From a plasmid, in assembly GCF_054482595.1 (NCBI RefSeq), contig NZ_JBTHVH010000004.1: a stretch of 64,000 nucleotides of DNA; one strand, 5' to 3'. Within the stretch, counting starts at the first letter, position 1. Every line of letters begins with the position of its first letter. Position numbers and translations under genes: made by a program. The notes under the pieces are model-generated. The model saw only the letters and a list, made by a program, of their open reading frames with translations, was not told the DNA's origin and ran no database searches. Below are positions 29,743-53,396 of the stretch, one piece after another.

Positions 29743-30150
29743 ATGAATGAAAACTCAGTAATCTTAATAAGTTTATTTTGGTTTTTTTTGGGATCGAGTG
29801 TTGTAGCTGGTTTTATGGATGCATCATTATATTGCTGGATTTTTGCAGCCATAAGCGCATTGTTTCTTCTTTCGGTGATACAAACACCAAAGGAGTTAAC
29901 GGTATCTATTAGTCATATGACAAGCAAAACGCTGATCTCAAAGACAGATGATGGATACACATTTAGCATTTCACCTTACGGAGACGGGTACCGCTTATCA
30001 GTCTCGCCTGAAAATCGTCACAATGGTACCCAAAGCTTTGACGGCTGGTTCCCACGTTTTTTTTCCGAACCACAGTATGCCAAATCATCTTTAACTAAAT
30101 TTCTCGGTGAGTCCTTAGTATGGGAAGAAGATTCAAGTAATGCTCTATGA
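29743..30150 (+). CDS. Small membrane protein (135 aa; 2 predicted TM segments plus a soluble tail)
   Basis: AAGGAA RBS upstream. The N-terminus is hydrophobic: ILISLFWFFLGSSVVAGF / YCWIFAAISALFLLSVI. Confidence 0.5.
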   Translation: MNENSVILISLFWFFLGSSVVAGFMDASLYCWIFAAISALFLLSVIQTPKELTVSISHMTSKTLISKTDDGYTFSISPYGDGYRLSVSPENRHNGTQSFDGWFPRFFSEPQYAKSSLTKFLGESLVWEEDSSNAL

Positions 30151-30195
30151 GATTACTTATTATAAATTTTTCTATTAATCTCCATGGAGTGATAT

Positions 30196-30450
30196 ATGAA
30201 TTTGGCCTATTTTTTATTTTTGTCTATAACTGTTATGCTTACGAGCTTTATTATTAAATCACTTGTCGTATTGGTAAAGTTCAAATTACTTCGTGATGAA
30301 CGTCTCGAATATACCAGCAATAAAAATATTGATGAGATGTACGATTTAATGAATGCGAAGGAAGAAATCCTCATAAGGCATCATAAGCAGATGTTGGCAT
30401 TGCATCTTTCACTATTAATATTCGTTCTATTTATTGCTTACATTTACTAA
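30196..30450 (+). CDS. Small membrane protein (84 aa; TM-helix-TM)
   Basis: GGAG RBS upstream. It has hydrophobic ends and a charged middle. Confidence 0.5.
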   Translation: MNLAYFLFLSITVMLTSFIIKSLVVLVKFKLLRDERLEYTSNKNIDEMYDLMNAKEEILIRHHKQMLALHLSLLIFVLFIAYIY

Positions 30451-30487
30451 AAATAATTTTATTCAACATTTCAACAAAGGGTTTTCA

Positions 30488-30775
30488 ATGGAAAGCTTCG
30501 AAACTGAACAAATGATTCAATATGCTTTCTACATAAATATCGTAATAACGACTGGTTTGGCATGGTTTTGCTTGCGGTCAGGATTGCATTACAATTTTTT
30601 CAGAAAAGCAGAGAGTGCCAGAACAAAAGGGCTGAGTAGTACCTCTACTGAACACGGTCCAGCAATAGTGAGACTAAAGAAGCTACAAGCATTAGTAGAT
30701 TTTATTAGTAACTGTGCTTTTCTAATCCTTTCAATTGGCACAGCTTATATTTTGTATGTTTGGAGCCACAGTTAA
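30488..30775 (+). CDS. Small membrane protein (95 aa; 2 TM)
   Basis: The start is taken at MESFETEQ. It has two hydrophobic segments separated by a basic loop. Confidence 0.45.
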   Translation: MESFETEQMIQYAFYINIVITTGLAWFCLRSGLHYNFFRKAESARTKGLSSTSTEHGPAIVRLKKLQALVDFISNCAFLILSIGTAYILYVWSHS

Positions 30776-30844
30776 CTCATACGAGGTAACTTCGGCAGGT
30801 AACAACTTCTAATGCAGGACTTTAATAACTCTAAGGGATTCTAC

Positions 30845-31042
30845 ATGAAAAAAGACGATCTAATTACGCGTTGTAAATTACTTAAAGGCGAACGCGATGA
30901 GTCTATCTTTACCATATTAATTGGGATAGTAGTAAAGCTGGGGCTGGTAGGCCTGGCATTCTATCTGTTGCTTGGTTCCACGATTGATTGGTCAAGCTGG
31001 AAAACTTATGCCGCCATGTTGATCTTGGGAGCATTTCTCTAA
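30845..31042 (+). CDS. Small membrane protein (65 aa; 2 TM)
   Basis: The start is taken at MKKDDLI after an AAGGGA. Hydrophobic segments are IFTILIGIVVKLGLVGLAFYLLL and YAAMLILGAFL. Confidence 0.45.
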   Translation: MKKDDLITRCKLLKGERDESIFTILIGIVVKLGLVGLAFYLLLGSTIDWSSWKTYAAMLILGAFL

Positions 31043-31156
31043 AATCTTGAACCTTTTTTCACTCATTACAAGCCATGACCTAGTGCGTAGATCATACGAT
31101 CTTTAAACCTTATGTCATTGATTTATAAGTACATATAACAAAGATTATGTTAAATA

Positions 31157-31172
31157 CTGTATGTATGTACAG
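31157..31172. promoter_or_regulatory. LexA (SOS) box candidate
   Basis: taCTGTATGTATGTACAGca versus the E. coli consensus TACTGTATATATATACAGTA shows 3 mismatches in 20, with a perfect CTG-N10-CAG core. Confidence 0.6.
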
Positions 31173-31378
31173 CATCAACAGTTGCCCCCCTCATATTGAG
31201 GTAATTGCTACATTCATACCACTATTCTTCTTATAGTATCGACATCCTGAATTATTGCACCCTACTGCTTTGTCTTTAGCTGTTCCGAATTAAAATTCAT
31301 TGCTCAATTTGGATCACATGACGATCAGCGTATTCCTTTGCTTTATCAAAGTTAAGTTTTTAAAACATAAGATATGTA

Positions 31379-31840
31379 ATGACAAATTCTCAATCTGATT
31401 TTCCTTTGAACGATCAAAATTTTCAGGCAGATTTGCTGAAAATCAAAAAGGTTTTCGCCGACCTTATAACGCAGGCATCAGATGGTAAGATACCCATAAG
31501 GTCTTCTCATGTACACGGCTTACACCATTTCGAGGAGCTCTACATCCGGGCAAGAGCAGGCATGTGTTCGGTCCTGGGATATCCGGTCATGGTTGTTTCA
31601 ACTATCTCAGTTAAAGAGCCCGGCACAGGCATTTTTAGAGCGCTTCTTGCAGAATTGAAATGTATTGCAGATGAACAAAATTACATTTTGAAAATTGAAA
31701 ATGTACTGCCTCCCCTATTCCGCAAATACCTTATTCAAGAAGGTTTTGTTTTCCCAGGTGAACCTTGGATGTGTGGTTCCGGCTATTGGTTTAAGAACCC
31801 ACAAGTACTTCATGAAAATATTGAGTTATTATCTGTTTAA
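31379..31840 (+). CDS. Hypothetical protein, GNAT-fold-like (153 aa)
   Basis: VKEPGTGIFRALLAELKCIADEQNYILKIENVLPPLFRKYLIQEGF resembles GNAT motif A and the following beta strands. This is a pattern-level call only. Confidence 0.35.
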   Translation: MTNSQSDFPLNDQNFQADLLKIKKVFADLITQASDGKIPIRSSHVHGLHHFEELYIRARAGMCSVLGYPVMVVSTISVKEPGTGIFRALLAELKCIADEQNYILKIENVLPPLFRKYLIQEGFVFPGEPWMCGSGYWFKNPQVLHENIELLSV

Positions 31841-31869
31841 GTCGATCTAACAATTTCACTGGAGCTAAC

Positions 31870-32277
31870 ATGTCCCCGGAATTGGTATCAGACATTGCAA
31901 GAGTGGCGCATGAAAAGCTACTTTCAATTTTAACGGAGTGCGGCATAGAGAAGACGGCAGGCACTTGCCTTTTTGCAAGCTATCTTGTGTGTTATTTAGC
32001 AAAAACTAAAGGTCTAGATGCTGTTGTCCGTGGGGGTAACGGTGCAGATGATGGCGGTATATTTATAGAGTGTGGTGGCTTTGGCCATTATTGGTGTGAG
32101 TTGAATTTCGAAGAAGTGCAATATTATATTGACATCACTTCCGAACAGTTTGGGTTTCATCCATACATAGTGAAACTCGCCAACGATATAACAGGATGGC
32201 CTCGATATATTCCTGGTGATCAGGAAACGGTCGATAGTCATTTAGAACAATTATTACGCGACGGCTATACAGAATAG
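31870..32277 (+). CDS. Hypothetical protein, transglutaminase/papain-like Cys-His-Asp candidate (135 aa)
   Basis: AGTCLFASYLVCYLAKTKGLDAVVRGG … GHYWCELNF…YYIDIT mirrors the GxCxxFA … HxW.E … D core of transglutaminase-like cysteine peptidases. A GGAG RBS lies upstream. Confidence 0.4.
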   Translation: MSPELVSDIARVAHEKLLSILTECGIEKTAGTCLFASYLVCYLAKTKGLDAVVRGGNGADDGGIFIECGGFGHYWCELNFEEVQYYIDITSEQFGFHPYIVKLANDITGWPRYIPGDQETVDSHLEQLLRDGYTE

Positions 32278-32304
32278 GCTGCGTATACCCTATCGCAGCC
32301 TTTC
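32277..32304. terminator. Bidirectional hairpin terminator between convergent genes
   Basis: GGCTGCG-tataccctat-CGCAGCC followed by TTT. Confidence 0.55.
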
Positions 32305-32327
32305 AGGCTCTTAACCCTTGTGACCTG

Positions 32328-32855
32328 TTAACGGAACCACTCAGGATGACGCTGCCGATCAACTTTGATAACCTGCGAATTAAATTCAACGACATCCGCT
32401 GGAGTAAGCATTAATTCATCAGGATTTACAATAAATGGTCTTAAAACCACTTCGCCACCGTCTTCTTTTGCACCGTAGATATTAATAAGAAAGTGCAGTC
32501 GTTGATTTCCTTCAGCATTGCGTTGCCATTCTCTAAAAGTCAAAGTTTGTTTAATATAGTTTGTTAAAAGAAATGCGAATTCAGATTCTTCCGTTTGTGA
32601 GATACCGATTTTGTTAGACATTTTTTTTAGTATCTTTCCGAGCATGGACACACAGGCATCTAGACTTAACGATGTTGAAATTTTGGTCGTATTAAAATCC
32701 TCCTGCGAAAGTGAAATCATCCATGTATTATCTTTATGATAGTCGGTAATATAAATAAAATGAGATGTAAAAGGCGTTGAGTGATTGAACTCTCCTAAGT
32801 TCCATCCATACTGACTCACTGTATTTGAGCTAAGTTCTTTGTCGGTAATGTTCAT
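32328..32855 (-). CDS. Hypothetical protein (175 aa)
   Basis: ORF only, with no motif recognised. Confidence 0.4.
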   Translation of the reverse strand: MNITDKELSSNTVSQYGWNLGEFNHSTPFTSHFIYITDYHKDNTWMISLSQEDFNTTKISTSLSLDACVSMLGKILKKMSNKIGISQTEESEFAFLLTNYIKQTLTFREWQRNAEGNQRLHFLINIYGAKEDGGEVVLRPFIVNPDELMLTPADVVEFNSQVIKVDRQRHPEWFR

Positions 32856-33021
32856 AATTCATACCTTTCGATAAAGTCTGTAATGATAATTAGCTATCTC
32901 AAAGGACCAGAACAACTCTTGAAATAACCACACTCGAAGAATTTATCATATTGAACACCCCTACCTAATAACCTTGCCGACTTAATAAATCACAATAGCC
33001 CTCCCCTGACATTTTAAAATG

Positions 33022-43607: not shown

Positions 43608-43900
43608 TTTAAGACCCTTAATTGTTGGGATTTGGCTGCATAACTTTGTTTTAGGGCGACTGCCCTGCTGCGTAACATCGTTGCTGCTCCATAACATCAA
43701 ACATCGACCCACGGCGTAACGCGCTTGCTGCTTGGATGCCCGAGGCATAGACTGTACAAAAAAACAGTCATAACAAGCCATGAAAACCGCCACTGCGCCG
43801 TTACCACCGCTGCGTTCGGTCAAGGTTCTGGACCAGTTGCGTGAGCGCATACGCTACTTGCATTACAGCTTACGAACCGAACAGGCTTATGTCCACTGGG
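43608..43900 (-). promoter_or_regulatory. attI1 and PcW of the second integron; P2 in its inactive 14-nt-spacer form
   Basis: ttgttatgactgtttttttgtacagt lacks the GGG insertion. TGGACA-17-TAAGCT lies within the intI1 5' end on the minus strand. Confidence 0.8.
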
Positions 43901-51832: not shown

Positions 51833-51882
51833 ACTTTATCACTGATAAACATAATATGTCCACCAACTTATCAGTGATAAAG
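51833..51882. promoter_or_regulatory. tet operators O1/O2 in the tetR-tetA divergent promoter
   Basis: ACTTTATCACTGATAAAC and AACTTATCAGTGATAAAG. Confidence 0.85.
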
Positions 51883-51930
51883 AATCCGCGCGTTCAATCG
51901 GACCAGCGGAGGCTGGTCCGGAGGCCAGAC

Positions 51931-53130
51931 GTGAAACCCAACAGACCCCTGATCGTAATTCTGAGCACTGTCGCGCTCGACGCTGTCGGCATCGGCCTGA
52001 TTATGCCGGTGCTGCCGGGCCTCCTGCGCGATCTGGTTCACTCGAACGACGTCACCGCCCACTATGGCATTCTGCTGGCGCTGTATGCGTTGATGCAATT
52101 TGCCTGCGCACCTGTGCTGGGCGCGCTGTCGGATCGTTTCGGGCGGCGGCCGGTCTTGCTCGTCTCGCTGGCCGGCGCTGCTGTCGACTACGCCATCATG
52201 GCGACGACGCCTTTCCTTTGGGTTCTCTATATCGGGCGGATCGTGGCCGGCATCACCGGGGCGACTGGGGCGGTAGCCGGCGCTTATATTGCCGATATCA
52301 CTGATGGCGATGAGCGCGCGCGGCACTTCGGCTTCATGAGCGCCTGTTTCGGGTTCGGGATGGTCGCGGGACCTGTGCTCGGTGGGCTGATGGGCGGTTT
52401 CTCCCCCCACGCTCCGTTCTTCGCCGCGGCAGCCTTGAACGGCCTCAATTTCCTGACGGGCTGTTTCCTTTTGCCGGAGTCGCACAAAGGCGAACGCCGG
52501 CCGTTACGCCGGGAGGCTCTCAACCCGCTCGCTTCGTTCCGGTGGGCCCGGGGCATGACCGTCGTCGCCGCCCTGATGGCGGTCTTCTTCATCATGCAAC
52601 TTGTCGGACAGGTGCCGGCCGCGCTTTGGGTCATTTTCGGCGAGGATCGCTTTCACTGGGACGCGACCACGATCGGCATTTCGCTTGCCGCATTTGGCAT
52701 TCTGCATTCACTCGCCCAGGCAATGATCACCGGCCCTGTAGCCGCCCGGCTCGGCGAAAGGCGGGCACTCATGCTCGGAATGATTGCCGACGGCACAGGC
52801 TACATCCTGCTTGCCTTCGCGACACGGGGATGGATGGCGTTCCCGATCATGGTCCTGCTTGCTTCGGGTGGCATCGGAATGCCGGCGCTGCAAGCAATGT
52901 TGTCCAGGCAGGTGGATGAGGAACGTCAGGGGCAGCTGCAAGGCTCACTGGCGGCGCTCACCAGCCTGACCTCGATCGTCGGACCCCTCCTCTTCACGGC
53001 GATCTATGCGGCTTCTATAACAACGTGGAACGGGTGGGCATGGATTGCAGGCGCTGCCCTCTACTTGCTCTGCCTGCCGGCGCTGCGTCGCGGGCTTTGG
53101 AGAAATTCTTCAAATTCCCGTTGCACATAG
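51931..53130 (+). CDS. tet(A): Tetracycline efflux protein TetA(A), 399 aa, last 9 residues replaced at an ISCR2 junction
   Basis: GTG start, VKPNRPLIVILSTVALDAVGIG… The C-terminus …RRGLWRNSSNSRCT differs from the native …RRGLWSGAGQRADR seen at 36683. Confidence 0.9.
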   Translation: MKPNRPLIVILSTVALDAVGIGLIMPVLPGLLRDLVHSNDVTAHYGILLALYALMQFACAPVLGALSDRFGRRPVLLVSLAGAAVDYAIMATTPFLWVLYIGRIVAGITGATGAVAGAYIADITDGDERARHFGFMSACFGFGMVAGPVLGGLMGGFSPHAPFFAAAALNGLNFLTGCFLLPESHKGERRPLRREALNPLASFRWARGMTVVAALMAVFFIMQLVGQVPAALWVIFGEDRFHWDATTIGISLAAFGILHSLAQAMITGPVAARLGERRALMLGMIADGTGYILLAFATRGWMAFPIMVLLASGGIGMPALQAMLSRQVDEERQGQLQGSLAALTSLTSIVGPLLFTAIYAASITTWNGWAWIAGAALYLLCLPALRRGLWRNSSNSRCT

Positions 53131-53396
53131 CCCGGCAATTCCTTTCCCTGCTCTGCCATAAGCGCAGCGAATGCCGGGTAATACTCGTCAACGATCTGAT
53201 AGAGAAGGGTTTGCTCGGGTCGGTGGCTCTGGTAACGACCAGTATCCCGATCCCGGCTGGCCGTCCTGGCCGCCACATGAGGCATGTTCCGCGTCCTTGC
53301 AATACTGTGTTTACATACAGTCTATCGCTTAGCGGAAAGTTCTTTTACCCTCAGCCGAAATGCCTGCCGTTGCTAGACATTGCCAGCCAGTGCCCG
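53103..53396 (-). mobile_element. ISCR2 5' end (upstream region plus first ~61 codons of the IS91-like transposase), truncated at the tetA junction
   Basis: MPHVAARTASRDRDTGRYQSHRPEQTLLYQIVDEYYPAFAALMAEQGKELPGYVQREFEEFL is the ISCR2 transposase N-terminus as I recall it. Confidence 0.6.

Follow-up and report, generated by a model that had tools for sequence, protein, structure and literature searches.

The 64,000 nt analysed here (hereafter the window) come from the plasmid contig NZ_JBTHVH010000004.1 (assembly GCF_054482595.1), part of an IncHI2 resistance plasmid, and carry a LexA-type operator in an intergenic spacer (31043-31378) ahead of two adjacent genes, here called gene A and gene B. 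The operator, or box, is a near-consensus site that LexA is likely to bind, and its position in front of A-B is best read as the product of a deletion in one IncHI2 lineage. Control of A-B by the SOS response, if real, is probably a recent by-product of that deletion in one very successful lineage. The argument turns on the following features:

31155-31174, no strand assigned: LexA-type operator TACTGTATGTATGTACAGCA, by direct reading; approximate heterology index 3.5/5.9; identical 20-mer in the plasmids pCfr12-1 and pSA18578_MCR9_1
31126-31354, plus strand: box-containing cassette, shared with a second IncHI2 lineage, without conserved open reading frame (ORF) or detectable RNA structure
31351-31354, no strand assigned: putative deletion junction with GTTA microhomology, where the cassette is joined to the region just upstream of gene A, from a four-way alignment
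31379-31840, plus strand: gene A, 153 aa, GNAT-like by predicted fold only, with a C-terminal conserved core
31870-32277, plus strand: gene B, 135 aa, a small stand-alone transglutaminase/papain-like Cys-His-Asp protein

The 20-mer TACTGTATGTATGTACAGCA was read directly at 31155-31174. It is the site given in a preliminary description of this DNA as taCTGTATGTATGTACAGca, and the properties listed there hold: the core is CTG-N10-CAG, with three mismatches to TACTG(TA)5CAGTA (positions 9, 13 and 19), the spacer is 336 bp long and AT-rich (33 % G+C), the ATG of the 153-aa ORF (31379) lies 204 bp past the end of the box, and the 135-aa ORF comes next, at 31870. The heterology index, which the same description had named as a check, is 3.5 in one orientation and 5.9 in the other. 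No other site of the window scores lower, and both values fall inside the LexA-binding range; the matrix used was built from 21 E. coli SOS boxes and yields approximate absolute values. LexA-binding sites have an index below about 12-15, and a low index reliably predicts LexA binding in E. coli (PMC12527982). Two control sites were scored in the same scan, a box at 43750 of the window (index 7.5) and the box of an umuDC-like operon on an IncHI1 plasmid (3.45). The first of these, GACTGTACAAAAAAACAGTC at 43750-43769, just upstream of intI1, served as an internal control and is the LexA box in the promoter of the class 1 integron integrase, with a function known from the literature; the second we take to be a LexA site, as expected from its position.

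Three copies of the motif CTGT-N8-ACAG are present in the window, where 0.69 would be expected; besides the one at 31155-31174, another is the box at 43750. For sites of the quality of 31155-31174, an exact convolution gives an expectation of 0.002-0.04 per 64 kb, even at the composition of the spacer; the independent-base model behind this estimate ignores repeats such as (TGTA)3, which is part of the core CTG-TATGTATGTA-CAG. The 16-mer core is also found in many phage contigs, and in 62 occurrences from the 240 phage and metagenome loci searched it is flanked by TA on both sides, which is the flank of the LexA-box consensus and far commoner than any other. As a pattern the core is permissive, matching hundreds of unrelated contigs, and is useful for flank statistics only; none of the contigs that match it in the viral and metagenome collections shares more than about 40 bp with the spacer. 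By these measures the site is real and non-random, and binding by LexA is likely because of its quality and rarity, the recovery of the control sites and the consensus flanks of the 16-mer core.

The window has a second strong LexA-like site, TACTGTGTTTACATACAGTC at 53303-53322, with an approximate index of 4.3. On one side of it a tet(A)-derived ORF (51856-53130) ends, and on the other comes the 3' end of a truncated LysR gene by floR. No obvious promoter coincides with the site, and thousands of plasmid records match the 2-kb tet(A)/LysR/floR stretch around it. The umuDC-like operon that provided a control (Peptidase_S24 and IMS genes; locus L294, 6715-8426, of IncHI1 plasmid CP029939.1) has its own LexA box, TACTGGTTAAATATCCAGTA at L294 6740, and is situated about 2.3 kb from a gene B homologue, beyond several leftward genes.

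When the spacer alone was used as a permissive query, 31126-31354 was found at 94.8 % identity in a second IncHI2 lineage of about 10 records, among them pCfr12-1 (locus L300) and pSA18578_MCR9_1 (locus L301). Phage records, E. coli genomes and plasmids outside IncHI2 contain nothing similar to the spacer. The cassette core (31143-31354) is 97.2 % identical between the lineages, and the box is unchanged in both (L300 3530; L301 1667) although the cassettes differ by 6 substitutions in 212 bp. A further IncHI2 plasmid, pKAM644_2, has the 34 bp preceding the box and diverges exactly at the first base of the box, so that the cassette behaves as a discrete piece.

The gene order of the second lineage is an ISNCY element, the cassette, about 430 nt, a 92-aa gene, a 540-aa gene, a gene here called B', several leftward small genes, an ADP-ribosyltransferase gene, A and B; some 6 kb thus separate the cassette of the pSA18578_MCR9_1 lineage from A-B downstream, and the genes that it precedes are others. 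In a four-way alignment, the window tracks L301 1822-1866 up to ATCAAAGTTA and then follows L301 from 7901 onward, beginning with GTTAAG; window 31345-31911 corresponds to L301 7901-8467 at 98.9 % identity. Homology with pKAM644_2 begins only at 31351, and about 40 more bases upstream of A, common to pKAM644_2 and pSA18578_MCR9_1, are absent from the window. Because the window continues the cassette to ATCAAAGTTA, then passes to sequence from upstream of A, and does so without these bases, its arrangement is best read as a deletion of about 6 kb across the GTTA microhomology. The material lost comprises the 92-aa, 540-aa and B' genes, the leftward small genes and the ADP-ribosyltransferase gene.

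This ADP-ribosyltransferase gene (215 aa, PF03496, E 6e-8) is on the same strand as A-B and 81 bp upstream of them, and the three form a trio in the pSA18578_MCR9_1 lineage (L301 7206-8467), from which the window lineage has lost the first member; the gene may hint at what A and B work with. Between the cassette and the 92-aa gene of pCfr12-1 (L300 3738-3945, minus strand), a protein-like fragment, VDWEYLPSWEDAQNWTREAFKGYGLGKADKVV..., is split over two frames and looks like the remnant of a decayed gene that ends at the right edge of the cassette.

Apart from the box, the spacer and its left border hold these features:

30812-31042, plus strand: 76-aa gene for a small two-helix membrane protein, last of four, with no terminator-like site after it
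31118-31146, plus strand: weak promoter-like pair TTGATT-17-AAGATT, 7.0 bits, with a predicted transcription start at the box's left edge
31144-31171, minus strand: promoter-like pair TGTACA-16-CATAAT, matching the consensus at 9 of 12 positions, with its first hexamer in the box
31318-31398, plus strand: 26-codon mini-ORF, rejected as a gene, spanning the junction at 31351-31354

The pair TTGATT-17-AAGATT is the best rightward promoter candidate in a position-weight scan, with a score below the median best of 9.2 bits in shuffled sequences, and a consensus promoter scan did not report it. The leftward pair TGTACA-16-CATAAT scores 6.5 bits in the position-weight scan, under the shuffled median, and a second leftward pair, ATGACA-16-TATGAT, is located at 31118-31091. 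Altogether four promoter-like sites were found in the region, with 5.4 expected from shuffles. No terminator-like site separates gene A from the four genes upstream on the same strand. These are four consecutive ORFs of 76-135 aa at 29743-31042, with hydrophobic, membrane-like segments and without a family match; the 76-aa gene has an 84 % identical homologue in an Enterobacter-dominated IncHI2 lineage, in which homology ends right after the stop codon. With this border on the left and the start of the pKAM644_2 homology on the right, breakpoints flank the spacer.

Several small ORFs and a possible RNA were considered as products of the spacer and set aside. The mini-ORF at 31318-31398, in which the preliminary description saw a likeness to TisB/DinQ-type membrane peptides, does exist as a reading frame, but it crosses the deletion junction, and only about 9 hydrophobic residues precede its Lys-rich tail. 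The pCfr12-1 counterpart, read from the same ATG, runs for 52 codons (58 aa as listed, from a TTG further upstream) and ends in an unrelated C-terminus, and the likeness to such toxins was not upheld. A 29-aa ORF (31147-31236) and a 24-aa ORF (31205-31279) are broken in pSA18578_MCR9_1 (L301) by TGC>TGA and TTG>TAG, respectively. A hydrophobic minus-strand ORF of 21/22 aa (31178-31110), with a G-rich Shine-Dalgarno-like run, was discarded since the box would fall inside its coding region. The spacer has no Rfam match at E<=1 and folds no better than shuffled sequences (z-scores -0.36 and -0.95), on which grounds a small RNA or riboswitch was likewise rejected.

Gene A belongs to a narrow family, for which 11 homologues were found. 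Its structure model is of moderate quality (predicted local distance difference test, pLDDT, 72) and resembles GNAT folds, with a GNAT-like order of strands and helices, and the loop K79-E-P-G82-T-G84 is conserved in the IncHI2-type and the Serratia/Kluyvera homologues. To this extent the GNAT-like character suggested for the protein in the preliminary description stands. At the level of sequence it finds no footing: gene A and its homologues have no Pfam or NCBIfam match at E<=1 and no hidden Markov model (HMM) match to any acetyltransferase family, gene A has marginal PHROG matches only, and the IncHI1 homologue does without the half that would bind acetyl-CoA. In that homologue (L004 2686-3159; L293 3494-3967), the C-terminal stretch of about 65 residues is shared, the N-terminal half is unrelated and seemingly helical, and the K-x-P-G-x-G loop is gone. 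The conserved part of A, LLxELK...FPGExWxCGSGYW, is therefore C-terminal, as the IncHI1 homologue aligns only from about residue 88. Membership of gene A in the GNATs is not established, and its family seems, from these alignments, to be built around a small C-terminal module.

The model of gene B is of high confidence (pLDDT 90, predicted template-modelling score 0.86) and shows a papain-like alpha+beta fold, in which Cys33 starts the helix 33-46, His73 starts the strand 73-80 and Asp88 ends the strand 83-88. All of 50 family members keep His73 and Asp88, and at least 90 % of them keep Cys33. The fold and this conserved Cys-His-Asp set bear out the earlier description of B as transglutaminase/papain-like. 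Pfam (including Transglut_core), NCBIfam and PADLOC gave no match to gene B itself, nor does it match the sequence of any solved structure; the Transglut_core profile matches one of the 50 family members (E=0.0018). A full profile search (E<=0.001) collected 268 clusters at 50 % identity, nearly all of them stand-alone proteins of 130-170 aa, and all unnamed or "hypothetical". The homologues are encoded in accessory regions of plasmids and islands, by methyltransferases, an EcoRII-type restriction gene, nucleases and umuDC-like genes, and no one neighbour is shared by all. As far as sequence and model can tell, the gene B family is a real, unannotated group of small thiol-enzyme-like proteins on mobile elements, and it is a more durable lead than the box.

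In every A locus, the next gene carries a Cys...His...Asp pattern. It is B in the window, in pKAM644_2 (L003), in IncHI1 plasmids (L004) and in pSA18578_MCR9_1 (L301), and B' in contigs of Serratia marcescens and Kluyvera sichuanensis (L005/L006). The B' proteins, of 141-165 aa, have an ECDGHT...PHLW...IIDY pattern that recalls the Cys, His and Asp motifs of gene B, and their genes stand beside A or in the cluster downstream of the box (L005 2375-2800; L003 2450-2947; L301 4089-4565); those of the S. marcescens and K. sichuanensis contigs are 40 % identical to that of pKAM644_2. No profile matched B' anywhere, and PADLOC recognised none of A, B and B'. An hhalign comparison of B' with B aligned the H-x-W-x-E and I-D motifs non-significantly (probability 1 %), and the relation of the two, as judged from these comparisons, is a resemblance at the level of motifs.

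Many large conjugative IncHI2 plasmids from E. coli and Salmonella, pSTM6-275 for one, match the region around the box at 100 % identity, and the whole of 31043-32277 is present at >=99 % identity in about 640 of 72,556 plasmid records. The locus is an accessory stretch between copper-resistance genes and a Tn1721/integron resistance region, with an orphan cytosine methyltransferase gene and a thermonuclease gene nearby. Many otherwise identical plasmids carry insertion sequences (ISVsa5, IS903B, ISKox3, IS3, ISApl1, IS30) inside 30800-32900, and the IncHI1 relatives have IS1, IS21 or ISNCY beside the A homologue; the 2-kb stretch 30800-32900 is an insertion hot spot.

How might the box act on A-B? 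The ancestor would have resembled pSA18578_MCR9_1, with the cassette ahead of the 92-aa, 540-aa and B' cluster and A-B about 6 kb further on, after the ADP-ribosyltransferase gene. The deletion at GTTA would then have brought the cassette up against the ribosome-binding region of A, an arrangement now fixed in the IncHI2 lineage dominated by E. coli and Salmonella plasmids. Since the upstream region of A-B itself was lost in the deletion, the pair would rely on signals from the cassette or from further upstream. Rightward transcription could come from the weak promoter ending at the box edge, or as read-through from the four small genes, and we infer that LexA, most likely sitting on the box in undamaged cells, would lower its passage into A-B. 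Cleavage of LexA, whether upon DNA damage or on entry of single-stranded plasmid DNA into a recipient, would raise expression of the pair. Through Cys33, His73 and Asp88, B would work as a thiol enzyme (a protease, deamidase or acyl/amide transferase), and A would be its partner protein. That LexA dampens rightward transcription into A-B, with derepression of the pair in the SOS response, is in our view the best explanation, if a tentative one, and falls just short of an even chance.

Several observations weigh against it. The sigma-70 promoter candidates at or next to the box, on both strands, are no better than expected by chance. The juxtaposition of box and A-B is a deletion product and not a conserved arrangement, the box being about 430 nt from the next gene in the undeleted lineage, and the cassette is near-identical wherever it is found, so that little can be made of the box being conserved. 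Some 60 loci with an A or B homologue were scanned with an index cut-off of 9.5-11, including pKAM644_2, Enterobacter-dominated IncHI2 plasmids, intact IncHI1 plasmids and 44 more distant genomes. The scan recovered the umuDC-like box as a positive control, and no LexA-like site was detected within about 4 kb of the A/B homologues, those of the S. marcescens and K. sichuanensis contigs and of 40 more distant loci among them, except in pSTM6-275, which is identical to the window. A search of the literature, finally, yielded no expression or binding data and nothing that links IncHI2 plasmids to the LexA box here. The box and A-B are not conserved together in related replicons, as the box of the second lineage precedes different genes, and among the relatives compared the box is not tied to the A-B pair. 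The preliminary description had envisaged a module of GNAT and peptidase under SOS control; an evolved module of this kind is not supported, given the joining of box and pair through the deletion of about 6 kb and the lack of a box at the other A/B loci examined.

Alternatively, the box may be a bystander, bound by LexA and carried along with the cassette, with no meaningful effect on A-B from its position about 200 bp ahead of A. In that case read-through from the small genes upstream would transcribe the pair, or it would barely be transcribed in DNA so AT-rich, and its link to the SOS response would be an accident of the deletion. We give this possibility clearly less than an even chance and consider it nearly as likely as dampening of A-B by LexA. 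It agrees with the deletion origin of the fusion, with the lack of an above-chance promoter at the box and of a terminator-like site ahead of A, with the absence of the box from all other A/B loci examined, and with the undeleted lineage, where only decayed ORF fragments occupy the stretch from the box to the next gene. However, a near-consensus site is very unlikely to persist by chance, the box is intact in both cassette-bearing lineages, and a repressor bound downstream of a promoter can still lower transcription.

Other readings survive less well. The box could control a leftward transcript from TGTACA-16-CATAAT, either antisense to the 3' end of the 76-aa gene or a short RNA. The position of the first hexamer within the operator, the consensus matches of this pair, the second leftward pair next to it and the nature of the upstream gene, which encodes a small two-helix membrane protein, would suit such an arrangement; yet promoter-like sites are no commoner here than in shuffles, the pair itself scores below the shuffled median, and no RNA structure or Rfam family was found in the spacer. 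Moreover, pCfr12-1 and pSA18578_MCR9_1 differ to the left of the box, with ISNCY close by and no 76-aa gene, and the target is thus not conserved, which leaves this reading improbable. We give similarly little credit to the idea that gene B represents a new family of small transglutaminase-like enzymes of plasmids and integrative elements whose targets, with A as partner, are host or defence proteins at the time when a plasmid establishes itself, and that the deletion, by putting the pair under LexA and having it switched on just when LexA is cleaved, aided the success of the most widespread E. coli/Salmonella IncHI2 lineage. Least probable of all is a chance palindrome, unrelated to LexA, that arose from the (TGTA)3 repeat in an AT-rich spacer: the repeat does lie in the core and many windows were screened beforehand, so that a rare event could have been picked, but the expected count remains minute even at 33 % G+C, the flanking TA...CA fits the consensus, the 16-mer core is flanked by TA on both sides far more often than by anything else in phage and metagenome contigs, and a chance origin would be no bar to binding, as sites of such quality bind LexA in Enterobacteriaceae (PMC12527982).

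The site has the hallmarks of the LexA operators known from plasmids and integrons (intI1, qnrB, operons of the umuDC/mucAB/impCAB type, colicin genes), i.e. a 20-bp CTG-N10-CAG palindrome with an AT-rich centre and a low index on a conjugative resistance plasmid of Enterobacteriaceae. In contrast to the box described here, which lacks a convincing promoter and met its genes through a deletion in one lineage, those boxes coincide with mapped promoters and have been kept together with their genes; the downstream genes A-B, unlike theirs, have no known link to DNA damage. The distance from box to gene has a precedent: the LexA box of tisB is 236 bp from the ATG, and SOS boxes may lie more than 200 bp off (PMC8072944). 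As in tisB/istR-1 and dinQ/agrB, the box precedes the first ATG by more than 200 bp and the leader contains small ORFs, whereas a conserved small hydrophobic ORF (all three candidates are broken or span the junction) and a signal of an antisense RNA are missing here.

Among mobile elements, small GNATs are represented by AcrVA5, AtaT and TacT, and YafP of E. coli is an SOS-induced GNAT. Gene A is similar to these four in the order of strands and helices of its model and in having K-x-P-G-x-G at the acetyl-CoA pyrophosphate site of GNATs, but it differs from them in matching no acetyltransferase HMM and in lacking an antitoxin-like partner upstream. Gene B shares 6-18 % identity with Atu2299 (2hly), TglA of S. 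pyogenes (9crn), LapG, SseI and arylamine N-acetyltransferases, and with its 135 aa and single domain it is much smaller than those transglutaminase/papain-like enzymes.

LexA operators are already known from resistance plasmids, and 31155-31174 would be a new member of this kind. In E. coli and Salmonella, the IncHI2 plasmids of the window lineage are major vehicles of multidrug and metal resistance. Should the box be active, SOS-inducing antibiotics, quinolones for example, would turn on a pair of uncharacterised plasmid genes, and the locus would be a clean natural example of regulatory rewiring through a single deletion. With a regulatory claim drawn from sequence and a pairing of recent evolutionary origin, the box is a reasonable experimental lead rather than a surprise. 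The function of the gene B family is worth testing irrespective of the box, for this is a sizeable and unannotated family in the accessory regions of plasmids, beside orphan methyltransferases, nucleases and restriction genes.

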